Source: a virus
Lineage: Duplodnaviria > Caudoviricetes
Direction: 5' to 3' (one strand)
Virus record (IMG/VR): IMGVR_UViG_3300028833_000064
Coordinates: 64,001 to 128,000 of that record
DNA length: 64,000 nucleotides
Shown: positions 5,257 through 52,871 of the stretch, one piece after another
Position numbering within the stretch: position 1 is the first letter of the stretch
Layout: every line of letters begins with the position of its first letter
The notes under the pieces: generated by a model
Told to the model about the DNA's origin: nothing
Database searches by the model: none
The model's input: the letters and a program-made list of their open reading frames with translations, nothing else
Made by a program: the position numbers and the translations under genes

Positions 5257-5426
5257 TTTTTAATTTCTGATGCAAAGATACGAACTTTTTTTGAATTACC
5301 AAACTTTTTTTTCAAAAAAATTTTATTTTTTTCGTAACTGCTTGATTTTGTGTAATAAAAAAATGAAAAAAATTTTAATCAGAATAAAAAATCCCTTGCA
5401 AAATTAGATTTTTACAAAGGATTTTT
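5257..5426 (-). repeat. Terminator + early promoter cassette, copy 2
   Basis: Near-identical to 2284-2453; TATCTTTG at 5273-5280, TTTG at 5300-5303, hairpin at 5387-5426. Confidence 0.85.
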
Positions 5427-5432
5427 TAGAAT

Positions 5433-5846
5433 TTATGCATTGTTGTCGTAGAATATTTCGACCTTATCTCTTTTGTTGTCTTGTGGTTTGATGGTGGCGT
5501 ATCCTATACGTTTCATCTTAACTGGGCACGTAATCCACTTCTCTTTCGTGTCTTTCACATCCGGAACCTCGTCTTCGGTGGGTTTGAAGATGTGTTTAGA
5601 AATCTTTTTTCTTCCATGTTGTACTGGTTCGTACAACCAAGCGAAAGCACTTGAACCGGACCCATAATACGATAGGGCTTTGAAACAACCGGTGACAGAA
5701 GTTGACACACAGACTCTTTTTGTCTTTTCGTCTTCACCCTCGATAGTGTTGTCCGGAACACGTGGATAGAATATGGTGTTATCATCCCACTTTAAAAAAG
5801 ATAAGTGATAGAGTTTCACTGTTTTACTTAGCTTATACCTTCTCAT
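5433..5846 (-). CDS. conserved phage protein, possible ADP-ribosyltransferase-like fold
   Basis: LYHLS...PRVP...RVCVSTS...DTKEKWI gives an H-S-E-like spacing. Confidence 0.4.
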   Translation of the reverse strand: MRRYKLSKTVKLYHLSFLKWDDNTIFYPRVPDNTIEGEDEKTKRVCVSTSVTGCFKALSYYGSGSSAFAWLYEPVQHGRKKISKHIFKPTEDEVPDVKDTKEKWITCPVKMKRIGYATIKPQDNKRDKVEIFYDNNA

Positions 5847-5850
5847 GTTT

Positions 5851-6852
5851 TTAATTTTCGAAAATAACTGAGATTTCTTTCAAACATCTGACGGGTTGTC
5901 CGTTCTTGGTTCCGGGATTCCACTTGGGCATGCTATTGATTACTTGTATTGCTGCATCACCACATCCGGCTCCGATGTCTTGCAGTACCTTGACGCCTGA
6001 AATTGTTCCGTCCTTTTCGACTATTACCGATACGATGACTTCACCCGATATGTTATATTGTCTAGCGAGGGGTGGATACTCGAGATTAGACTTGATGAAC
6101 TTTTTCAAGGCAACCTTCCCTCCGACAAATGTTGGATACTTGTCTGGGTTCTGACAGATTTCGTCTTTCGAAAAAAACGAAGAATCTTTTTCAACAACCA
6201 TAGAGTCTGACGGACTTGTGTATTCCATCTCGATAGAATCACTTTTGGACATCTTTTCTACCATATCCGTTTTGAACCTGTTTTTCTTGTAGATGAAAAA
6301 CTCACCGAGGTAGTACAAGTCACTATTATACATCCATATCTTTTCGAACTTTGACGAAGATAGTTCTATACACGTGTCTGCATCCTCCAAGTATGGGTAT
6401 TCCTTATTGGCAACAGAAGACGGTACCGGAGTTATCAACGAGTATCCAATTTTTATATTTACATCACTTTCAATATTATATGATGTAATAATCAAGTATT
6501 TACGGAACTCTCCGAACTCACCGCTTTCGTCGGACGAGACATAGTTGGCGATAGTTCTGCACATCAACACCGATGGCCGTTTTTCATAATCTATTGTTGA
6601 AAATTTGAATCCGGCATCCTTGGCGAATGATATACTCTTTGTCATAGTGTCGGCGAACTTGTGTTGCAACTCCCTCCAATTATCTTCTGATTTATACCAG
6701 TCGATATTGCCTTGTTCGTATTTACATTTATAGTACTCGTCGAGAAAGTTGATTATAGTTTCCCGTTTCATTTCATCCATGTACTCCTCATTCGTCATAC
6801 ATGACGAACAAAGAATAGAAATAAGCATTGATACTAAAAAAATCCTTTTCAT
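5851..6852 (-). CDS. lipoprotein with C-terminal TonB domain
   Basis: Lipobox ILCSSC; C-terminal PTFVGG..LEYPPLA..ISGEVIVSVIVEKDGTI..GCGDAAIQVINSMPKWNPGTKNGQPV is a classic Bacteroidota TonB CTD. Confidence 0.85.
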   Translation of the reverse strand: MKRIFLVSMLISILCSSCMTNEEYMDEMKRETIINFLDEYYKCKYEQGNIDWYKSEDNWRELQHKFADTMTKSISFAKDAGFKFSTIDYEKRPSVLMCRTIANYVSSDESGEFGEFRKYLIITSYNIESDVNIKIGYSLITPVPSSVANKEYPYLEDADTCIELSSSKFEKIWMYNSDLYYLGEFFIYKKNRFKTDMVEKMSKSDSIEMEYTSPSDSMVVEKDSSFFSKDEICQNPDKYPTFVGGKVALKKFIKSNLEYPPLARQYNISGEVIVSVIVEKDGTISGVKVLQDIGAGCGDAAIQVINSMPKWNPGTKNGQPVRCLKEISVIFEN

Positions 6853-6853
6853 T

Positions 6854-7933
6854 TTATTTTATGTTTAAAGTGATTGACAAACCGACAAAACATTTTACTT
6901 GTTTTCCATTCACCGAACCGGGATTCCACTTGGGCATCGACTCTATAATTTTTTTGAAATTCTCTCCATATCCTCCACAGTCCTTGATGACATTGACGTT
7001 GAAAACCTTTCCGTCCTTGTCGACAAAGAATCCGATATAAATGTCTCCGGACGTTTTCACTTTCGGCTCGATTGACGAACTTTGCTCTTTAAGATATTCA
7101 AACAATGAGTCGAAGTAGTCACCATATTGTGGAGCTTCCTTTATGGACACATACCAGTCTTCTTCTTTGATGAAAGGTTTGAGAGATTCCTCATACTCTT
7201 CCATAGAAAATATCTTTCCACTGATGTCTTCGACTGCTGTCACCGTGAGATTGTTGGTGGAGTCTTTAGTCGTTTGTGTGTTGTCTTGACTATTTCCATC
7301 TCTCCATCCAATATTTAAATCGGTGAAATCCAAATCCAGCATAGACGTTTTATCAGCAAAAATGTATGTACCCAATCGGAGTATAGTTACGGACTTATGA
7401 CAATTACAATTTGAATCTATCCAATTTTCTATTTCCAAATTAGATACTTTGTTTTCAACACAAGTGTCTCTGTATATGTATGGAATATGTTTAAATTTTC
7501 TTTTTTTAAATTCAGCTGCCGGTGTAAGGGATATTATATTGTAACTCACCATAAGTGAGTTTTTACCGTCTGGCGTTAGGTTCTTCATTCTAATTCTTGA
7601 GTGAATTTCAAATTGTATTACTTGACCATATTCGATAACCTTACCACCATCGTCGTGTTTCTCATAATATCCGAGAACTTTTGTTTTGTGGACATAATTA
7701 GAATTTAGGTTGCCGAGGTTTTCGGCCATAGATTTTGCAAAACAGATGTCAGATGTCATCTTCTCAGCAAAGGCTTCCTTTATGTTTACACATCTTCTGG
7801 ATGTGTCCCACCAAATTGGATTTGTGTCGGTGTATCCGTCTATAAATTCCGACATATTTTTGTGACCCTCACCTTCACATGAGACAAGGAATAATGCAGT
7901 CAGAGACAAAAGTATCAAAGATAGTTTTTTCAT
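6854..7933 (-). CDS. lipoprotein with C-terminal TonB domain (paralogue)
   Basis: Start MKKLSL at 7933; lipobox FLVSC; C-terminal GDIYIGFFVDKDGKV..IIESMPKWNPGSVNGKQV. Confidence 0.8.
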   Translation of the reverse strand: MKKLSLILLSLTALFLVSCEGEGHKNMSEFIDGYTDTNPIWWDTSRRCVNIKEAFAEKMTSDICFAKSMAENLGNLNSNYVHKTKVLGYYEKHDDGGKVIEYGQVIQFEIHSRIRMKNLTPDGKNSLMVSYNIISLTPAAEFKKRKFKHIPYIYRDTCVENKVSNLEIENWIDSNCNCHKSVTILRLGTYIFADKTSMLDLDFTDLNIGWRDGNSQDNTQTTKDSTNNLTVTAVEDISGKIFSMEEYEESLKPFIKEEDWYVSIKEAPQYGDYFDSLFEYLKEQSSSIEPKVKTSGDIYIGFFVDKDGKVFNVNVIKDCGGYGENFKKIIESMPKWNPGSVNGKQVKCFVGLSITLNIK

Positions 7934-7944
7934 TTTTTTAGAAT

Positions 7945-8385
7945 CTATTCTCCCCAAATGGTTTCGAAAACTTTTTCGAGGAAAGGTTTGTTAATGTTGT
8001 AGGTTTTATTTTTCAAGATTATTTTAGGATTCTGAATCTCGGTTCCGTCTTCTTTATAGAGCAGTGAATGAATCGTTGACTCCCACGATAAGGGAGTTTT
8101 TTGTGAAAGGTATTGCATCAAGAGGTCAGTCTGGTTTCTCCAGCTATTGTACTCTACGGACCAGTCTCTGTTATTGTCGGCTACGAAGTCGGAGAACTTT
8201 GCTATTCTGATTCTCAATCCATTTTTATTTTTTTCTTCCGGTTGGTGTTTCGAAACAATATCGTCCATCACACCACGGATGATTTCTTTCATCTTTTCTT
8301 CGGCTTCCAATCTTTCCCTTTCGAGAATTTTACATTTGGATGTAATGTCACGGATTTGCTGTCCGAGTTCTTTTAATTTTTCCAT
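7945..8385 (-). CDS. hypothetical protein
   Basis: ORF with N-terminal coiled coil. Confidence 0.6.
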   Translation of the reverse strand: MEKLKELGQQIRDITSKCKILERERLEAEEKMKEIIRGVMDDIVSKHQPEEKNKNGLRIRIAKFSDFVADNNRDWSVEYNSWRNQTDLLMQYLSQKTPLSWESTIHSLLYKEDGTEIQNPKIILKNKTYNINKPFLEKVFETIWGE

Positions 8386-8458: not shown

Positions 8459-8755
8459 TTAAAGTGTTAAGATGAATTTCCAAACATATTCGTGACCTGA
8501 AGAGGTTAAAATGGCATCAACTTTGGAGTATCCGGATTTTTTATACTTATCAACAAGTTCGTACACAAACTTTTCTTTGTGAGAACCGTGTATTGTGAAA
8601 GACCATTTTTTGGGAGGCATACCACAACGGCTCACCCGGATGTATTCTTCTACTCCTTTTCTTTCAGCGGACTCAACCTCTTTGTTGAAACAGTCTCTTT
8701 CAATTTCTTCATTGGTCACATAGACCATCTGAATGAATTGTTCAGGTGTTATCAT
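8459..8755 (-). CDS. hypothetical protein
   Basis: ORF downstream of a class II motif. Confidence 0.6.
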   Translation of the reverse strand: MITPEQFIQMVYVTNEEIERDCFNKEVESAERKGVEEYIRVSRCGMPPKKWSFTIHGSHKEKFVYELVDKYKKSGYSKVDAILTSSGHEYVWKFILTL

Positions 8756-8772: not shown

Positions 8773-8784
8773 AAAGATACTATT
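8773..8784 (-). promoter_or_regulatory. Class II promoter motif
   Basis: AATAGTATCTTT about 18 nt upstream of the 8755 start. Confidence 0.65.
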
Positions 8785-8800: not shown

Positions 8801-8829
8801 AAAAAACCCCCGTCTCACGACGAGGGTTT
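8801..8829 (-). terminator. intrinsic terminator with GUGA tetraloop
   Basis: Minus strand AAACCCTCGTC-GTGA-GACGGGGGTTTTTT. Confidence 0.75.
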
Positions 8830-16511: not shown

Positions 16512-17600
16512 TTATACCTTTGGACTATCGTTGGTTATTACTTTCGAAAAAGATTTCTTGAACTCACTCTCTCTGTCCATCTCATCACAATGTGTGATTT
16601 CAACAATATAACTCTCTTCTCCACAATCTTCTTCAATCCTTTCTTTTAGTTCTCCAATATCAAGTTTAGAGTATTTGAACTCACCTTGTCCATCGTTAAA
16701 ATGATTTGTCCGGTCTTCTTTGATTCCAGTTGATATTACTGCTCGGTTTAACTGTGAAAACTCACCGTCACCATGTCGTGTAAGGTATGGTCTTGTTACA
16801 TAGTGTAGAAGAGTGTTGCAATTTTTTTCGGTCAATCCCATTTGATTCATTATTATTTTTGAATAACTTATTCCAGTATCTGATGGGGTTGTATCATAAG
16901 TATCTTTACCAGTGTCTTTTAAAAGTAACCCTTGACCATTTTCGAAAATAAAGTTGTCAAATTTAAATAGTCTTTCACTCTCTGCTGAAACGGGAACAGT
17001 GTTCTCGAACATGAATGTGCAGTCATTGATGAAGTGCCAAACTAGATTTGGGTCGTTCCATATTTTTTTCCATCCATCGGGTATGGTTATCTTTTTTTCG
17101 TAGTAACTCTTGACTTTCATCAAGTAGTCAAATCTCATCCGAACAGGAATATCATCACAAAAGTGGTCGAAACCCATTGTTGATGTTTCTTTGTATCTTG
17201 TGATTGTGTTCCATATTCCCATCCGACAGGAAGCGTGGGAACCTTTTAGTTCCTCCATTATAGAGTTTGCAATCATATCGAATGGGGTCGACCAGCGACA
17301 ATTTACGTCACGATAAGTCACAACCGGTTTAACAACCAACTCGTTCCATTCTTTTACAAATTGCATTGGGTTCAATATGAAAAAAGAAGAATAGTAGTTG
17401 GCTGCCCCGTAATATGTTCCGGAACCGAAGTGTTGAAAGGTGTGTTCTCCAACATCTGTTATCACGGAATGACCTCTTTGGGAACCTCCGTTTGTTAAGA
17501 TATTAAGGACTTTTTCACTTTCTTTGGTGTATTTCGCCACCACAGTTCCCTTTCCTTCGTCACCGTTGTTGCTGCCGACTACTATTCTTGCTGTTTTCAT
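16512..17600 (-). CDS. divergent adenylosuccinate synthetase (PurA)-family ligase
   Basis: GSNNGDEGKG, NGGSQRGHSV, FENGQGLLL, YLTRHGDG, ITHCDE; the canonical TTGRxR aspartate loop is absent. Confidence 0.8.
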   Translation of the reverse strand: MKTARIVVGSNNGDEGKGTVVAKYTKESEKVLNILTNGGSQRGHSVITDVGEHTFQHFGSGTYYGAANYYSSFFILNPMQFVKEWNELVVKPVVTYRDVNCRWSTPFDMIANSIMEELKGSHASCRMGIWNTITRYKETSTMGFDHFCDDIPVRMRFDYLMKVKSYYEKKITIPDGWKKIWNDPNLVWHFINDCTFMFENTVPVSAESERLFKFDNFIFENGQGLLLKDTGKDTYDTTPSDTGISYSKIIMNQMGLTEKNCNTLLHYVTRPYLTRHGDGEFSQLNRAVISTGIKEDRTNHFNDGQGEFKYSKLDIGELKERIEEDCGEESYIVEITHCDEMDRESEFKKSFSKVITNDSPKV

Positions 17601-33908: not shown

Positions 33909-36900
33909 TTACTGTTGTATTGCTTGAATTTGAGATGCTTTGTTCTTCCAATATTGTGCTGCTTTATATGTTTCTACACTCCCAGTAGGTACATAGATTA
34001 TATAAGTTGTATGAGTTGGAAGTGTTAAAATCGATATTGTTGGAGGAGTTGTTCTTAAAGATGTGATAGAAGTAAGACCACTACAACCATGAAAAGCACT
34101 ATTTCCAATGCTTGTCACTGAGTTAGGTATAGTAACTGAAGTCAGACCAGTGCAATTACTGAAAGCATAATTTCCAATGCTTGTCACATTGTCAGGTATT
34201 GTGATTGAAGTAAGACCAGTGCAATTACTGAAAGTACTATCTCCAATGCTTGTCACGGAGTTAGGTATTATTGTATTTTTACAACCAGTAATTAACGTAT
34301 TAGTTGATGTCTCTATGATGGCGTTACAGTTATTACGACTATCATATACAGTATTACCATCAGAAACTATTATTGAGGTAAGACCATTACAACCACTGAA
34401 AGCACTATCTCCAATGCTTGTCACTGAGTTAGGTATAGTAATTGAAGTCAGACCACTACAACCATGAAAAGCACTATTTCCAATGCTTGTCACTGAGTTA
34501 GGTATAGTAATTGAAGTCAGACCACTACAACCATAAAAAGTATTATTTTCAATGCTTGTCACGGAGTTAGGTATTATTGTATTTTTACAACCAGCAATTA
34601 ACGTATTAGTTGATGTCTCTATGATGGCGTTACAGTTATTACGACTATCATATACAGTATTACCATCAGAAACTATTATTGAGGTAAGACCGGTACAACC
34701 ATAAAAAACATCACTTCCAATGCTTGTCACGGAATTAGGTATTTCGATTGAAGTAAAACTACTACAATTATCGAAAGCATTATTTCCAATATTTGTCACG
34801 GAGTTACCTATAGTGACAGAAGTCAGACCTCTACAATTACTGAAAGCACTATTTCCAATGCTTGTCACGGAGTTAGGTATAGTGATAGAAGTAAGACCTC
34901 TACAATCACTGAAAGCTCTAATTCCAATGCTTGTCACGGAATCTGGTATAGTGATAGAAGTAAGGTTTCTACAACCATAAAAAGCCTCTTCTCCAATGTT
35001 TGTCACTGAATCCGGTATAGTGACAGAAGTAAAATTATCACAATCAGTGAAAGCACTATCTCCAATGCTCGTCACATCATTGTCAAAAGTAATAATTCCA
35101 ACTCCATTTTCATAATCATTACTTACAATATTTGCACCGGAATAATCTACACTTTCATCTATATCCGCCACATTTCCATCACTTGTCGTATAATATATCA
35201 CATTTTTCGGTTTTTGTGTTATGGGCATTTCTATCGATTTTGAAATTATCCAGTTATCATTCATAACTTTAGTGGATATTTCAATACTATTATTTGCTTG
35301 AAGTGTTATTGGTGTTAAATTGCCAATTATACATACACTTTGTATAATTGGTGGAACAAGTGTGAGTGTAATGTTTGAATTCGATATATTCTTTAACAAG
35401 AAATGATGTATATTTTCATTTCCAACCAAGTCACCACTTACTGTCGGGAAGTTAAAAGGAATATTTATAGATGTTCCCGTTGTAGTCACCGATGTGTCAT
35501 CAAATTCAACAAGTGTGTATGAGTTGTTCACACTAGATATAGAAGTCATATAGTCACTTGAATTAAAATAAGTGAAACTTCCATTTGTATAAAAAGCAGA
35601 ATTAGATGTATAATTCTTTGTTTGTGTAAGACTGCTTTTTGAATATGTGTTATCATCCACACTTCCGTCTGCTTTCAAAAACTGAGACGATGTTCCATCA
35701 CGTTTAACGAAACTTGCCGCCTTTAATGCACCAGTACTTGGATTGAATGTCAAACCTTTATTCGTATCGTCTGAAACATATTGGATTTTTATTGCATCAT
35801 CATTTGCACCGAATGGAATTGTTCTATCTGAACTTGTCCAAGAAGTATCAGTGTTCATATTAAATCCACTTGAAAACGTTTTCACACCGGAAATCGTCTG
35901 AGCACTGCTTAAATCAACGTAATCAGAATGTGTGTGGTCTGAAGTTGAATATGTGTTATCATCCACACTTCCGTCGGCTTTCAAGAATTGAGAAGATGTT
36001 CCACCAATGACTTTGAAATGTCTTGCTCTTATCGTACCACTACTTGGTTGACATGTAAGAGTACTAAACGTATATGTAGTACTTGTGGTACTCTTTGGTG
36101 TAAAACCTTCTGAACCGGCATTATATCCTATAACAAGTGGTCTCCAATATGTGTAACCCGATGCCGAAGCGTATGTCTGTGTAGTATTGGTATCACTTAA
36201 ATAAATTCTTGTCAAAACCCAGTTCGTACCATCGTAATTGGCAATCCACCAAGAAGCGGGAAAGTTACTTGTTGTTGGAGTTGCCGTACCAATTTTGATT
36301 GGTTTGGGTTCTGTACCATTTACACTGAGCGTAACATTGGATGTTGCACTATTTGTATTAGTTGTCTGAAGAAATATTCTTTGTCCGGTTACTAGTTCAA
36401 AGCCTGGCATCGTGGCTTTTTTAGCAGCGGTTGCAGCAGCGGTACTACAATAGGCGACACCACTTAATGTACTATCTTTATAACATTCAGATGGTATTTC
36501 TCCACTTAATTTAGATGCATCTATAACAGTTTGAGTATAATCAACACCATCTAGATATATTGTTTTTTTACTTTCATCAAAAATAATCACACCACTTTCA
36601 TTATCTTCAGATTCATTATATTCTTTTTTTCTAAATCTTATATTTAGTGGTATTGCTCTTAATTTAGATAACATAAATTCATTATCTTTGTAAAGATATT
36701 CATAAAGTTTTAAACAATTTTGTGGAACATATATATTATCAACATACAAATCAGAAAGATGCACATCGTTTGGATTTTGGTCTAAAATGGTTATAGAAGA
36801 CAATGGTGAGTCTAATTCATTAAAAACTTTTCCTGAAAAATCACTACTATCAATAATTTCAGATTTTGGTATTACTATTGATTGTAATTTATCATTGTAA

Positions 36901-39620
36901 TAAAACACACCATCATAGACCATATTAACAGTATCAGGTATAGTGACAGAAGTAAGTGAAGCATCTACACTTACCAAAGTAGTTTTTGTATTATCTGTAT
37001 AAACTAAACCATCTTCAATATACCCATTAACACATTTAGCACCCCATGGACTTCCATTTGCACTTCCATTATAATTAACATTTCTTATAGCATAAAAAGC
37101 ATTACTTCCAATGCTTGTCACGGAGTCTGGTATTGTGATAGAAGTAAGACCACTACAACCTTGGAAAGCACTATTTCCAATGTTTGTCACGGAGTCACCT
37201 ATTGTGACAGAAGTAAGACCATTACAACCATAAAAAGCATAAGTTCCAATACTTGTCACGGAGTTACCTATAGTGACAGAAGTAAGATTAGTACAATTAT
37301 AAAAAGCATTACTTCCAATGCTTTCAACGGAGTCGGGTATAGTGACTGAAGTAAGTGAATTATCTACACTTACCAAAGTAGTTTTTGTATTATCTGTATA
37401 AACTAAACCATTTTCAACATACCCATTAACACATTTAGCACCCCATGGACTTCCATTTGCACTTCCATTATAATTAACATTTCCTACACCATAAAAAGCA
37501 TTACTTCCGATACTTGTCACGGAGTTAGGTACAGTGACAGAAGTAAGACTATAACAATTTTGGAAAACATTACCTTCAATGCTTGTCACGGAGTTACCTA
37601 TAGTGACAGAAGTAAGATTTTTACAATTATAAAAAGCATAAGTTCCAATACTTGTCACGGAGTTAGGTATTGTGACAGAGGTAAGATTTTTACAATCACC
37701 GAAAGCATAAGTTCCAATACTTGTCACGGAGTTAGGTATTGTGACTGAAGTAAGACCAATACAACCACGGAAAACATTACCTTTAATACTTTTCACTAAA
37801 CCCGGTATTGTGACAGAAGTGAGACCAGTACAATTGTGGAAAGCATAAGGTTCAATATTTATCACGGAGTTGGGTATTGTGATTGAAGTAAGACTAGTAC
37901 ACTCATTGAAAGCATAATATCCAATGCTTGTCACGGAGTCTGGTATTGTGATAGAAGTAAGACCACTACAATCACTGAAAGTATAACTTCCAATGTCTTT
38001 CACGGAGTTTGGTATAGTGACAGAAGTAAGACCGGTACAACCTTGGAAAGTATTAAATCCAACGCTTTTCACGGAGTTGGGTATAGTGACAGAAGTAAGA
38101 TTTTTACAATTATAAAAAGCATTACTTCCAATGTCTTTCACGGAGTTGGGTATAGTGACAGAAGTAAGTGAAGCATCTACACTTACCAAAGTAGTTTTTG
38201 TATTATCTGTATAAACTAAACCATTTTCAACATACCCATTAACATATTTAGCACCCCAATGGTTTATTGGTACACTTCCATTATAATTAACATTTCTTAC
38301 ACTATTGAAAGCATTACTTCCGATACTTGTAACGGAATTAGGTACAGTGACAGAAGTAAGACCACTACAACCACTGAAAGCACTATTTCCAATGCTTGTC
38401 ACGGAATCCGGTATAGTGACAGAAGTAAGATTAGTACAATTTTGGAAAACATAATCTTTAATACTTTCCACAGAGTTAGGTATAGTGACAGAAGTCAGAC
38501 TAGTACAATTATAAAAAGCATAAGTTCCAATAGTTGTCACGGAGTCTGGTATAGTGACAGAAGTAAGACTACTACAACCACCGAAAGCACCATTTCCAAT
38601 GCTTGTCACGAAGTTACCTATTGTGACAGAAGTAAGACCACTACAACCACTGAAAGCACTATTTCCAATGCTTGTCACGGAGTCTGGTATAGTGACAGAA
38701 GTAAGACCACTACAACCTTGGAAAGCACCATTTTCAATAGTTGTCACGGAGTCTGGTATTGTGATAGAAGTAAGATTAGTACAATAATTGAAAGTATTAC
38801 TTCCAATGTTTTCAACGGAGTCAGGTATATTGACAGAAGTCAGACTGGTACAATAATTGAAAGCATTACTTCCAATGTTTTCAACGGAGTCGGGTATAAT
38901 GACAGAAGTAAGACCGGTACAACCTTGGAAAGCATTATTTCCAATGCTTGTCACCGAATCTGGTATAGTGACTGAAGTAAGTGAAGTACTTACACTTACC
39001 AAAGTAGTTTTTGTGTTGTCTGTATAAACTAAACCATCTTCAACATACCCATTAACACATTTAGCACCCCATGGACTTCCATTTGCACTTCCATTATAAT
39101 TAACATTTCTTATAGCATAAAAAGCATCACTTCCAATACTTGTCACGGAGTTAGGTACAGTGACAGAAGCAAGACCACTACAACCTTGGAAAGAATAACC
39201 TCCAATGCTTGTCACGGAGTTACCTATAGTGACAGAAGTAAGACTACTACAACCACCGAAAGCATAAGTTCCAATACTTGTCACGGAGTTAGGTATTTCG
39301 ATTGAAGTAAGACCACTACAATATTGGAAAGCACTAGTTTCAATACTTGTCACGGAGTCTGGTATAGTGACAGAAGTAAGACCACTACAACCACTGAAAG
39401 CACCACTTCCAATACTTGTCACGGAGTTAGGTAATTCTATTGATTTAAGAATTCTGTTATTAATTTTAATGCTTGTAATGTTTCCATTAAACTTAATTAC
39501 ACCTTTACCATTGCTATATGTGTTTGATAATACCTCAACATTTGAATTTAAAGTTTCTGTTTTTAATAATTTGTTATACCAAGTAGTATACCAAATTTCA
39601 TCGTTAGGAATATTTGACAT
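33909..39620 (-). CDS. 1903-aa BspA-type (LRR_5) leucine-rich-repeat adhesin with a central tail-fibre-like segment
   Basis: Dozens of 23-aa LTSVTIPNSVTSIGxxAFxxCxx repeats in two arrays; centre has YCSTAAATAAK..TLSVNGT and two GTSSQFLKADGSVDDNTYS copies. Confidence 0.88.
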   Translation of the reverse strand: MSNIPNDEIWYTTWYNKLLKTETLNSNVEVLSNTYSNGKGVIKFNGNITSIKINNRILKSIELPNSVTSIGSGAFSGCSGLTSVTIPDSVTSIETSAFQYCSGLTSIEIPNSVTSIGTYAFGGCSSLTSVTIGNSVTSIGGYSFQGCSGLASVTVPNSVTSIGSDAFYAIRNVNYNGSANGSPWGAKCVNGYVEDGLVYTDNTKTTLVSVSTSLTSVTIPDSVTSIGNNAFQGCTGLTSVIIPDSVENIGSNAFNYCTSLTSVNIPDSVENIGSNTFNYCTNLTSITIPDSVTTIENGAFQGCSGLTSVTIPDSVTSIGNSAFSGCSGLTSVTIGNFVTSIGNGAFGGCSSLTSVTIPDSVTTIGTYAFYNCTSLTSVTIPNSVESIKDYVFQNCTNLTSVTIPDSVTSIGNSAFSGCSGLTSVTVPNSVTSIGSNAFNSVRNVNYNGSVPINHWGAKYVNGYVENGLVYTDNTKTTLVSVDASLTSVTIPNSVKDIGSNAFYNCKNLTSVTIPNSVKSVGFNTFQGCTGLTSVTIPNSVKDIGSYTFSDCSGLTSITIPDSVTSIGYYAFNECTSLTSITIPNSVINIEPYAFHNCTGLTSVTIPGLVKSIKGNVFRGCIGLTSVTIPNSVTSIGTYAFGDCKNLTSVTIPNSVTSIGTYAFYNCKNLTSVTIGNSVTSIEGNVFQNCYSLTSVTVPNSVTSIGSNAFYGVGNVNYNGSANGSPWGAKCVNGYVENGLVYTDNTKTTLVSVDNSLTSVTIPDSVESIGSNAFYNCTNLTSVTIGNSVTSIGTYAFYGCNGLTSVTIGDSVTNIGNSAFQGCSGLTSITIPDSVTSIGSNAFYAIRNVNYNGSANGSPWGAKCVNGYIEDGLVYTDNTKTTLVSVDASLTSVTIPDTVNMVYDGVFYYNDKLQSIVIPKSEIIDSSDFSGKVFNELDSPLSSITILDQNPNDVHLSDLYVDNIYVPQNCLKLYEYLYKDNEFMLSKLRAIPLNIRFRKKEYNESEDNESGVIIFDESKKTIYLDGVDYTQTVIDASKLSGEIPSECYKDSTLSGVAYCSTAAATAAKKATMPGFELVTGQRIFLQTTNTNSATSNVTLSVNGTEPKPIKIGTATPTTSNFPASWWIANYDGTNWVLTRIYLSDTNTTQTYASASGYTYWRPLVIGYNAGSEGFTPKSTTSTTYTFSTLTCQPSSGTIRARHFKVIGGTSSQFLKADGSVDDNTYSTSDHTHSDYVDLSSAQTISGVKTFSSGFNMNTDTSWTSSDRTIPFGANDDAIKIQYVSDDTNKGLTFNPSTGALKAASFVKRDGTSSQFLKADGSVDDNTYSKSSLTQTKNYTSNSAFYTNGSFTYFNSSDYMTSISSVNNSYTLVEFDDTSVTTTGTSINIPFNFPTVSGDLVGNENIHHFLLKNISNSNITLTLVPPIIQSVCIIGNLTPITLQANNSIEISTKVMNDNWIISKSIEMPITQKPKNVIYYTTSDGNVADIDESVDYSGANIVSNDYENGVGIITFDNDVTSIGDSAFTDCDNFTSVTIPDSVTNIGEEAFYGCRNLTSITIPDSVTSIGIRAFSDCRGLTSITIPNSVTSIGNSAFSNCRGLTSVTIGNSVTNIGNNAFDNCSSFTSIEIPNSVTSIGSDVFYGCTGLTSIIVSDGNTVYDSRNNCNAIIETSTNTLIAGCKNTIIPNSVTSIENNTFYGCSGLTSITIPNSVTSIGNSAFHGCSGLTSITIPNSVTSIGDSAFSGCNGLTSIIVSDGNTVYDSRNNCNAIIETSTNTLITGCKNTIIPNSVTSIGDSTFSNCTGLTSITIPDNVTSIGNYAFSNCTGLTSVTIPNSVTSIGNSAFHGCSGLTSITSLRTTPPTISILTLPTHTTYIIYVPTGSVETYKAAQYWKNKASQIQAIQQ
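36950..39430 (-). repeat. 69-bp coding tandem repeats (LRR) with four copies of an about 40-codon spacer cassette
   Basis: NVNYNGS...WGAK.VNGY.E.GLVYTDNTKTTLVSV near 36970, 37370, 38180 and 39000 with high DNA identity. Confidence 0.85.
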
Positions 39621-52625: not shown

Positions 52626-52640
52626 TTTTAGTTATTTTTG

Positions 52641-52713
52641 AGTTCCGTGAGGGATTCGAACCCCCGTGCCAGGTTTTGCAGACCCGTGCCTGAACCGACT
52701 CGGCCAACGGAAC
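52641..52713 (-). tRNA. tRNA-Cys(GCA)
   Basis: GTTCCGT acceptor stem, CT-GCA-AA loop, GTTCGAATC T-loop; CCA not encoded. Confidence 0.92.
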
Positions 52714-52720
52714 ATTTTAG

Positions 52721-52792
52721 TTCACCCATCAGGATTCGAACCCGAATCAACTGGTCCGTAGCCAGTCGTTCTATCCATTGAACTATGGGTGA
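52721..52792 (-). tRNA. tRNA-Arg(ACG)
   Basis: TCACCCA/TGGGTGA acceptor, ACTGG-CTACGGA-CCAGT anticodon arm, TTCGAAT. Confidence 0.92.
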
Positions 52793-52798
52793 ATTTTG

Positions 52799-52871
52799 TA
52801 CCCCCGCTGGGACTCGAACCCAAGTTTCCACCTTGAGAGGGTGGCGTCCTAACCGATTAGACGACGGGGGC
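52799..52871 (-). tRNA. tRNA-Glu(CTC)
   Basis: GCCCCCG acceptor, CCACC-CTCTCAA-GGTGG anticodon arm, GTTCGAGTC. Confidence 0.92.

Follow-up and report, generated by a model that had tools for sequence, protein, structure and literature searches.

Two adjacent minus-strand open reading frames, P0001 and P0002, were analysed in a window of 64,000 nucleotides (the whole stretch of DNA under study) that lies inside a 185-kb IMG/VR virus record. The phage context assumed by the first-pass annotation was borne out by the one-strand arrangement of the genes, a tRNA cluster and PHROG matches. The phage record is 63% complete. Both frames lie in a five-gene unit, whose features are listed below in the direction of transcription.

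8804..8829, minus strand: terminator-like hairpin at the end of the upstream (RlaP-type nucleotidyltransferase) unit; 11-pair stem with 6 GC pairs, then a T-run
8773..8784, minus strand: promoter-like motif, phage-specific, AATAGTATCTTT on the coding strand, heading the five-gene unit
8459..8755, minus strand: 98-aa gene, first of the unit, without signal peptide and without family
7945..8385, minus strand: 146-aa gene, second of the unit, without signal peptide and without significant family
6854-7933, minus strand: P0002, 359-aa open reading frame counted from ATG
7877..7933, minus strand: P0002 signal peptide with lipobox LVS/C (Cys19); Cys invariant in homologues
7340..7876, minus strand: P0002 N-domain, residues 20-198, a new alpha/beta lipoprotein domain (alignment; local HMM E 2e-68)
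7133..7339, minus strand: P0002 linker, residues 199-267 (alignment; boundaries by analogy with the P0001 model)
6857..7132, minus strand: P0002 degenerate TonB-type C-terminal domain, residues 268-359; YP tyrosine lost, Gly, Gly and Trp landmarks kept
5851-6852, minus strand: P0001, 333-aa open reading frame
6799..6852, minus strand: P0001 signal peptide with lipobox CSS/C (Cys18)
6274..6798, minus strand: P0001 N-domain, residues 19-193; four helices and a six-stranded sheet (model)
6136..6273, minus strand: P0001 linker, residues 194-239, not Pro-rich, predicted disordered (pLDDT 22-40 over residues 194-230)
5854..6135, minus strand: P0001 canonical TonB C-terminal domain with YP motif, residues 240-333 (Pfam/NCBIfam, Foldseek, alignment)
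5433..5846, minus strand: 137-aa gene, last of the unit
5385..5428, minus strand: terminator-like hairpin closing the unit; 19-pair stem, then a T-run

The AATAGTATCTTT motif was present in the window in 10 exact copies and one copy with one mismatch, against 1.0 expected, and 11 copies were never reached in shuffles. With the five genes placed between predicted terminators and behind this 11-copy phage motif, P0001 and P0002 are predicted to be co-transcribed. An alternative TTG start of P0002 at 7957 overlaps the upstream gene, and the 137-aa gene was also found 3' of a TonB_C copy in three related contigs. The unit contained no lysis genes, no embedded gene and no transmembrane partner. A search of the 63%-complete record for a TonB-dependent transporter (TBDT) or ExbB partner returned no Plug domain, and one ExbB-like frame of 42 aa was rejected as spurious.

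P0001 and P0002 proved to be paralogous over their whole length, as proposed from the sequence earlier, and have diverged (23% identity, E 6e-16, BLASTP). Both begin with a lipoprotein signal whose Cys is invariant, followed by a domain of ~175 aa (N-domain), a disordered linker, and a C-terminal TonB-type domain (CTD). The motifs that the first-pass annotation listed as shared are genuine conserved columns of a 12-sequence alignment, in which F66, M70, T71, I74, F76, K78, Y137, D159-T160-C161 and L182-G183 are invariant or nearly so, and the identical 20-nt stretch that it reported (5912-5931 = 6918-6937) is embedded in a 50-nt repeat with 78% identity. The lipobox Cys assigned to each paralogue (C18 in CSS/C of P0001, C19 in LVS/C of P0002) is invariant across all phage homologues, and since the n-region, h-region and lipobox pattern fit, we infer that both proteins are lipidated. 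Neither protein carries the N-terminal transmembrane anchor of TonB, in agreement with the earlier observation, and neither has a Pro-rich linker.

The earlier assignment of a TonB CTD to each protein held fully for P0001, whereas the domain of P0002 is only a degenerate version. The CTD of P0001 matched Pfam TonB_C (PF03544) at E 1.4e-15, with 58 bits against a cut-off of 24.6, and also scored above the NCBIfam TonB_C threshold. Foldseek with the model of this domain gave 6i97_D as the best match (E 1.3e-4, TM 0.69 on target), with a series of further solved TonB CTDs after it, the matches including structures of transporter complexes (6i97_D, 9dc4_T, 2grx_C, 2gsk_B). Its sequence retains the YP motif as well as residues equivalent to G174, G186 and W213 of E. 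coli (alignment; landmarks from PMC10350073), L-E-Y-P of P0001 and its orthologues being aligned to Q-Y-P of E. coli TonB. The CTD of P0002 remained below the Pfam TonB_C cut-off (E 0.027, 15 bits), and is recognisable mainly via the CTD of P0001 (41% identity over 65 aa, E 1.9e-12). P0002 and its orthologues have S-I-E-P in place of the YP segment, so that the tyrosine, the most conserved feature of TonB and a contact to TBDTs (PMC10350073), is absent. Since this tyrosine is lost, the idea of two decoys serving different transporter sets is left without support, and the diverged CTD of the 359-aa protein probably recognises something else, or no canonical partner at all.

Among chromosomal sequences, the CTDs closest to that of P0001 came from Bacteroidales and Prevotellaceae (41-44% identity), and the relatives of the N-domain were about 20-28% identical; near-identical host genes, named beforehand as an observation that would count against the decoy idea, were thus not found. 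Of the 21 bacterial proteins most closely related to this CTD, about 13 are secreted or are lipoproteins and likewise have no TonB anchor, so that the absent transmembrane helix does not by itself point to a decoy.

The N-domain, described by the first-pass annotation as an unknown middle domain, is indeed without a known family (nothing in Pfam, NCBIfam, PHROGs or PADLOC), but is in fact the core of the family, found also without any CTD. It is the family-defining unit and was previously undescribed. The model for P0001 was confident (pLDDT 88, pTM 0.83) and contained four helices and a six-stranded sheet; no fold was assigned by Foldseek against the PDB (best E 0.067), by VIA-align against 48,161 chains (best Z 3.6), or by a search of BFVD (best E 0.036), and weak rows for an OB-fold and for DUF5043 were rejected as not above background. 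ESM Atlas features scored at most 0.79, under the level of a usable lead. The domain is rare, with only 35 cluster representatives matching among 1.84 billion proteins. No relatives turned up when 185,579 species genomes were scanned with a pattern, and a profile search of 401 Bacteroidales genomes gave four weak matches, which were not counted because they were confined to the signal-peptide end of the profile. On rare occasions the domain makes up a whole lipoprotein in bacterial chromosomal surroundings; the gene context of one such homologue comprises GH97, a cation-efflux gene and glycogen synthase. Two family members are on contigs of ~1 kb, without gene context.

In related phages, the genes form tandem arrays of 5, 3, 2 or 1 copies, some of them without CTD, and in this phage lineage one or two array copies bear a TonB CTD on a flexible linker. 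All related contigs had a copy with canonical TonB_C, but the presence of the other copies varied, one contig keeping a start-less relic of the P0002-type copy. For P0001, dN/dS was 0.07-0.09 in the CTD and 0.11-0.13 in the N-domain, and for P0002, 0.11-0.17 in the CTD and 0.33 in the N-domain. The CTD is therefore the most constrained part of both proteins (0.07-0.17), and the degenerate CTD of P0002 is still under purifying selection.

A phage lipoprotein with a TonB CTD was already known; the fusion to the N-domain, the tandem arrays and the five-gene unit are new. The known example is CPT_21_73 of phage 21 (UMO75484.1), a lambdoid coliphage lipoprotein of 108 aa with a TonB CTD only, and similar genes are found in the coliphages ev017 and JLK-2012 and in Stx1a-converting phages. 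Common to this protein and the window pair are the phage gene, a lipobox (LAVG/C in phage 21), and a TonB CTD with neither a transmembrane anchor nor a Pro-rich linker. The coliphage gene is a single-copy moron beside lysis and bor genes of temperate phages, whereas the window pair belongs to the tandem arrays of a huge Bacteroidales phage, and has its CTD separated from the Cys by an extra ~175-aa domain plus a linker of 46-69 aa. The principle is common to both, but they do not form one family: pairwise similarity is marginal (28% identity over 53 aa, E 0.008), and the lipoprotein-TonB-CTD architecture may therefore have arisen independently. Literature searches returned no functional studies of phage TonB-domain lipoproteins, and TonB_C records labelled "UNVERIFIED Bacteriophage sp." were rejected as further phage examples, as they look like ordinary bacterial TonB or M56-TonB genes.

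Compared with TonB transducers (E. coli TonB; the Bacteroides TonB4 type, 227-228 aa), P0001 has the same CTD fold with the YP, Gly, Gly and Trp landmarks. The transducers, unlike the window proteins, have an N-terminal transmembrane helix for ExbBD and a periplasm-spanning linker, and a long transmembrane anchor was seen both in Bacteroides TonB and in the TonB of a 735-kb phage; the window proteins have a lipoprotein signal in that place, and P0002 in addition has no YP tyrosine. Bacteroidota also have fusions of TonB_C to small domains specific to that phylum, for example B. thetaiotaomicron TonB8 (BT3673: TonB_C and DUF4488), whose partner domain, like the N-domain, is mostly solitary and is fused to TonB_C in a minority of cases (19 of 146 DUF4488 sequences; PMC10350073). 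TonB8 differs in the partner domain and in the domain order (the CTD is last here), and the present genes are in phage-borne tandem arrays. T5 Llp and Cor are phage outer-membrane lipoproteins that jam a TonB-dependent transporter from the periplasmic side, the same mechanism as is proposed below (PMC9586334). Llp differs in its size of ~60 aa, in lacking a TonB fold, in its binding site, which is the plug and not the TonB box, and in the position of its gene beside that of the receptor-binding protein; P0001 and P0002 are not adjacent to tail or receptor-binding genes. No similarity to Llp or Cor was found: scans of Pfam, PHROG and PADLOC matched TonB_C alone, and the fold searches with the N-domain were empty.

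P0001 and P0002 probably interfere with outer-membrane transporters of the host. The reading that we prefer, held tentatively and at somewhat less than an even chance, is that they are phage lipoproteins whose CTD acts on TonB boxes and so blocks or retunes the transporter, with lipidation, orientation, binding and phenotype as we infer them. The proteins would be made during infection from the phage-specific transcription unit, exported via Sec and signal peptidase II, anchored in the outer membrane, and located on its periplasmic face. The motor-less TonB domain of the 333-aa copy would dock on SusC/BtuB-type TonB boxes by beta-strand pairing, the docked CTD would hold the N-domain at the transporter, and the blocked or retuned transporter would either keep out rival phages or toxins, in the manner of Llp, or impair uptake in a dominant-negative way. 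In favour of this reading are the canonical CTD of P0001, with its landmarks and its fold match to TonB CTDs from transporter complexes, the strong constraint on both CTDs, the constant presence of the canonical TonB_C copy, the invariant lipobox Cys, and the predicted co-transcription behind a phage motif. By analogy, such a decoy has precedents in periplasmic TonB fragments, an over-expressed periplasmic TonB domain inhibiting TBDT import according to the account of Howard 2001 in PMC9841981, and in T5 Llp, a periplasm-facing phage lipoprotein that jams FhuA (PMC9586334); the CTD-only lipoprotein of lambdoid coliphages is a further precedent. The decoy idea is weakened because Bacteroidota chromosomes commonly encode motor-less TonB_C proteins, which are presumably not decoys, and because the acidic segments behind the lipid Cys of the CTD-bearing copies resemble the surface-export signal of Bacteroides. 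Loss of SusC-type import could also starve the infected host, which speaks against transporter blocking, as do the position of the genes away from tail and receptor-binding genes and the failure to find a TBDT or ExbB partner in the 63%-complete record.

It is conceivable, if doubtful, that P0001 and P0002 are surface-exposed lipoproteins, possibly packed in outer-membrane vesicles. The acidic segment would then be an export signal, and the N-domain and TonB-fold domain, displayed outside the cell, would mask or modify receptors (as surface remodelling, exclusion or vesicle decoys) and leave periplasmic TonB boxes untouched; no function is known for an extracellular TonB fold, which counts against this reading. 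Over positions +2 to +6 behind the lipid Cys, both window proteins (M-T-N-E-E and E-G-E-G-H) carry a net charge of -2; nearly all homologues with a CTD have -1 to -3, and the CTD-less paralogues and the remaining N-domain-only members mostly 0 to +1, a contrast drawn from few independent lineages and to that extent a weaker argument for surface exposure. In Bacteroides, surface display is maximal at a net charge of -2 to -3 in this segment (PMC13192725, PMC6222051), and in B. thetaiotaomicron secretion peaks there too (PMC13192725); if this rule applies, the CTD would point outwards, away from the TonB boxes. Published signals of surface export in Bacteroidota are CS(D/E)2, X-K-(D/E)2, and two acidic residues after a polar or basic one, and one relative has C-M-A-K-E-E; a Saprospiraceae chromosomal TonB_C lipoprotein begins with C-E-R-D-D-D-D-D-D-D, an overt export signal. 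Against this, the acidic pair is at +5/+6, away from the optimal +3/+4 or +4/+5, position is critical in C. canimorsus (the K at +4 of its signal is absent in the present proteins), and B. thetaiotaomicron prefers Ser at +2 and D/E at +3 (PMC13192725). Since the pair is not at the optimum, the argument from surface export is indecisive in both directions.

An unlikely alternative is that the N-domain is the effector and the TonB-fold domain a generic periplasmic tether or adaptor for an envelope task of the phage, with transporters not blocked. It draws on the N-domain-only paralogues within the same arrays and the single-domain homologues, one of them in a chromosomal context, and on TonB_C fusions elsewhere, in which the partner is a 788-aa glycosidase-sized protein, a thioredoxin-like domain, an M56 peptidase or, in TonB8, DUF4488. 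However, the CTD is more constrained than the N-domain, the copy always kept is a CTD-bearing one, and no ligand or partner can be named for a domain with neither a fold match nor a Pfam family. That the genes encode lysis or virion components, such as a spanin-like outer-membrane lipoprotein, or are decaying passengers with no function, is very improbable. A lipoprotein signal is common to o-spanins, but these are small and Pro-rich, whereas the window proteins have 333-359 aa and two folded domains; a spanin was rejected, as the proteins do not end in a transmembrane segment, and the unit holds neither a lysis gene nor a membrane gene that is embedded or could be a partner. The cleavable lipoprotein signal argues against a virion component, and dN/dS of 0.07-0.33 across all domains against decay, although one relative has lost most of its P0002-type copy; both of these readings were likewise rejected.

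Nutrients enter Bacteroidota mainly through TonB-dependent transporters, and such transporters often serve phages as receptors in E. coli and other well-studied bacteria. A non-energised phage TonB domain anchored in the outer membrane, if the transporter-decoy reading is true, would be a simple and general route to all TBDTs, serving the exclusion of rivals or the retuning of uptake. The occurrence of lipoprotein-TonB-CTD genes in coliphages, and of a more elaborate form in huge gut or rumen phages, suggests that phages came to this strategy by convergence. The N-domain family, modelled confidently but matching no known fold, offers a well-defined target for studies of structure and function, and the question of the export signal makes P0001 and P0002 a natural test case for the rules of lipoprotein sorting in Bacteroidota. 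More speculatively, and with still less probability than the N-domain-effector reading, the N-domain may be a new module that binds or gates the transporter plug, and the arrays a modular toolkit in which the CTD is a universal address tag for TonB boxes, with which huge Bacteroidales phages would turn off or re-programme selected SusC/BtuB-type transporters in the course of long infections; if true, the phage would thereby run its own layer of control over the chief nutrient gates of gut Bacteroidota and have a broad exclusion system as well.

The genes for P0001 and P0002, the two TonB-domain lipoproteins, lie 1 base apart on the minus strand within a five-gene unit bounded by hairpins:

8829-8804, minus: terminator-like hairpin ahead of the unit
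Between the hairpins, minus: five genes in the order 98 aa, 146 aa, P0002, P0001, 137 aa
6854-7933, minus: P0002 gene, 359 aa counted from ATG
5851-6852, minus: P0001 gene, 333 aa
5428-5385, minus: hairpin closing the unit

The two proteins were aligned end to end by BLASTP (23% identity, E 6e-16), which bears out the adjacent paralogues described in the first-pass annotation; the motifs that it listed as common to both coincide with conserved columns when 12 sequences are aligned, and its identical 20-nt stretch was confirmed (5912-5931 = 6918-6937). Each N-terminus has a basic n-region and an 11-13-residue hydrophobic core followed by a lipobox (CSS/C and LVS/C, respectively), the Cys of which is invariant across all phage homologues. 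The structural description of the pair is solid.

An AlphaFold model of P0001 was divided into three parts:

Residues 19-193: N-domain, helices and sheet
Residues 194-239: linker, disordered and not Pro-rich (pLDDT 22-40)
Residues 240-333: C-terminal domain (CTD)

For the P0001 CTD, Foldseek placed the TonB CTD 6i97_D first among solved structures (E 1.3e-4); numerous further TonB entries came next, and TolA domain III matched less well. The domain scored 58 bits against Pfam TonB_C and marginally over the cut-off of NCBIfam tonB_Cterm. Of the conserved TonB landmarks (YP motif, G174, G186, W213; PMC10350073), the YP motif is retained in P0001 when aligned to E. coli TonB, and the equivalents of the E. 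coli G174, G186 and W213 are invariant among all CTD-bearing members. A TonB CTD had been assigned to each copy, and this holds for P0001; the P0002 CTD is homologous to it (41% identity across 65 aa) but scored 15-18 bits only against TonB_C, had no significant match among solved structures (best TonB2, E 0.39), and lacks the YP tyrosine in the alignment. Despite this degeneracy, the CTD is the most constrained part of both proteins (dN/dS 0.07-0.17 for CTDs, 0.11-0.33 for N-domains, 0.19-0.83 for linkers).

The window spans bases 64001-128000 of its IMG/VR virus record, and its minus strand holds nearly all ORFs of at least 120 aa not overlapping a longer frame, and a three-tRNA cluster:

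52640-52871, minus: tRNA-Cys-GCA, tRNA-Arg-ACG, tRNA-Glu-CTC

Phage-family matches among the large ORFs included a DNA ligase, a methyltransferase and a PurZ-like synthetase, and Megablast found no near relative among deposited phages. The 362-aa adenylosuccinate-synthetase-like protein at 16512-17600 matched PHROG 1211 (E 6e-30), which contains PurZ-type enzymes and is annotated 2-aminooxy adenylosuccinate synthetase. A 1903-aa protein at 33909-39620 matched two PHROG families of unknown function (E 1e-209 and 1.5e-174), each over 10-11 repeated stretches.

After the first hairpin, the five-gene unit is preceded by a 12-nt motif, AAAGATACTATT on the plus strand and AATAGTATCTTT on the coding strand, which occurs 11 times in the window (658, 1593, 8773, 11784, 16479, 27867, 28517, 30407, 33757, 54035 and 62420) against 1.0 expected, usually just 5′ of minus-strand genes, and is probably a phage-specific promoter element. 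The unit sits directly upstream of a phage sigma-factor gene; the small proteins co-transcribed with the pair (98, 146 and 137 aa) gave no signal peptide and no family. From the hairpins, the motif and the sigma-factor neighbour, we infer that a promoter specific to the phage drives the unit as part of the infection programme, and that the unit is not an isolated moron.

The neighbourhood is kept in related phage contigs, in the order SAM synthetase, NUDIX, RlaP-type nucleotidyltransferase, array and sigma factor, with arrays of 5, 3, 2 (window) or 1 copies. Two contigs have three-copy arrays, with a 210-aa N-domain-only lipoprotein between the degenerate-CTD and canonical types. The largest array and a relic were located in two related phage contigs:

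L032, 8446-12773: five copies (262, 257, 245, 332 and 337 aa), the first three N-domain only, the fourth with a degenerate CTD, the last with canonical TonB_C
L010 (194-kb IMG/VR relative), 5781-5942: relic of a P0002-type gene, last 54 codons, no start, 85% identity

The relic abuts the RlaP-type nucleotidyltransferase stop in a single-copy contig from which the 98-aa gene, the 146-aa gene and most of the P0002-type paralogue are deleted. Since copy numbers vary, the single copy in two lineages is the TonB_C copy, and the P0002-type gene survives as a relic in L010, the canonical TonB_C copy is the constant array member and the others are accessory.

The first-pass annotation proposed that lipid-anchored, non-energised TonB CTDs jam TonB-dependent transporters; its observations stood, and its interpretation was supported in part only. 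On this reading, which is ranked first but held tentatively, a lipid-anchored CTD on a flexible linker beneath the outer membrane would pair with exposed TonB boxes, and docking could also keep the N-domain at the transporter. The precedents are sound: in E. coli, transport via these transporters is inhibited when the periplasmic TonB domain is over-produced (Howard 2001, cited in PMC9841981), and T5 Llp is a phage lipoprotein facing the periplasm that jams FhuA and prevents superinfection (PMC9586334). The missing YP tyrosine of P0002 argues against the pair being simple decoys for two transporter sets. The phage record, as far as it is available (185 kb, estimated completeness 63%), encodes no TonB-dependent transporter or ExbB partner, and tail genes do not adjoin the pair.

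The segment after the lipid Cys also weighs against a periplasmic decoy, which would fail if the proteins were flipped outwards across the outer membrane, an arrangement we consider somewhat less likely than the decoy. Net charge over the five residues after the Cys is -2 in P0001 and P0002, and nearly every homologue with a CTD has -1 to -3; in CTD-less paralogues and other N-domain-only family members it is mostly 0 to +1. Such an acidic segment is a lipoprotein export signal for surface exposure in Bacteroidota (PMC6222051), and display in B. thetaiotaomicron is highest at net -2 to -3 (PMC13192725), but the acidic pair here lies at +5/+6, off the optimal positions, so the surface prediction is ambiguous. 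The 21 nearest chromosomal relatives of the CTD comprise ~13 secreted proteins or lipoproteins, one thioredoxin-like fusion and only 7 anchored TonBs. One of the ~13 has an overt poly-Asp export signal, a 159-aa lipoprotein with C-E-R-D-D-D-D-D-D-D before TonB_C (L026, Saprospiraceae MAG contig CAYWOZ010000172.1, match 180-476), which suggests that the TonB fold may be displayed on the cell surface in some Bacteroidota. TonB_C fusions in B. thetaiotaomicron include M56, CarboxypepD_reg and DUF4488 (PMC10350073); in this phylum, TonB_C domains lacking a TonB anchor are commonplace, a further point against the decoy reading.

A lipid anchor with a motor-less TonB domain is already known in coliphages. 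Lambdoid coliphages encode such a lipoprotein, and that of phage 21 was confirmed as a 108-aa TonB CTD alone with a lipobox (annotated 'TonB C-terminal domain protein'), and literature searches found no functional study of a coliphage TonB-CTD lipoprotein. It shares these two features with P0001 and P0002, with a sequence relation marginal at best, whereas the new extra domain, linker, tandem arrays and host phylum set the pair apart. Unlike the pair, a complete TonB-like protein of a 735-kb uncultured phage (LR756501.1; L043, 2018-2752), with N-terminal membrane anchor, Pro-rich linker and TonB_C, is an energisable, anchored TonB and not a lipoprotein.

The family is defined by the N-domain, which has no Pfam family. 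A model from 30 sequences (pLDDT 88, pTM 0.83) has a six-stranded sheet with four helices packed on it, and no convincing structural neighbour was found (Foldseek best E 0.067 in PDB, VIA best Z 3.6, BFVD best E 0.036). An N-domain-only profile searched against 1.84 billion cluster representatives matched only 35 proteins, the majority of 190-260 aa and consisting of a signal peptide, usually with lipobox, and the N-domain only. Neither a search of 401 sampled Bacteroidales species genomes nor a pattern scan across all species genomes turned up a convincing copy, and one N-domain-only homologue has a plainly bacterial gene context (GH97, cation-efflux gene, glycogen synthase). On these grounds, the N-domain appears to be a rare lipoprotein module of Bacteroidales, acquired and expanded by huge phages.
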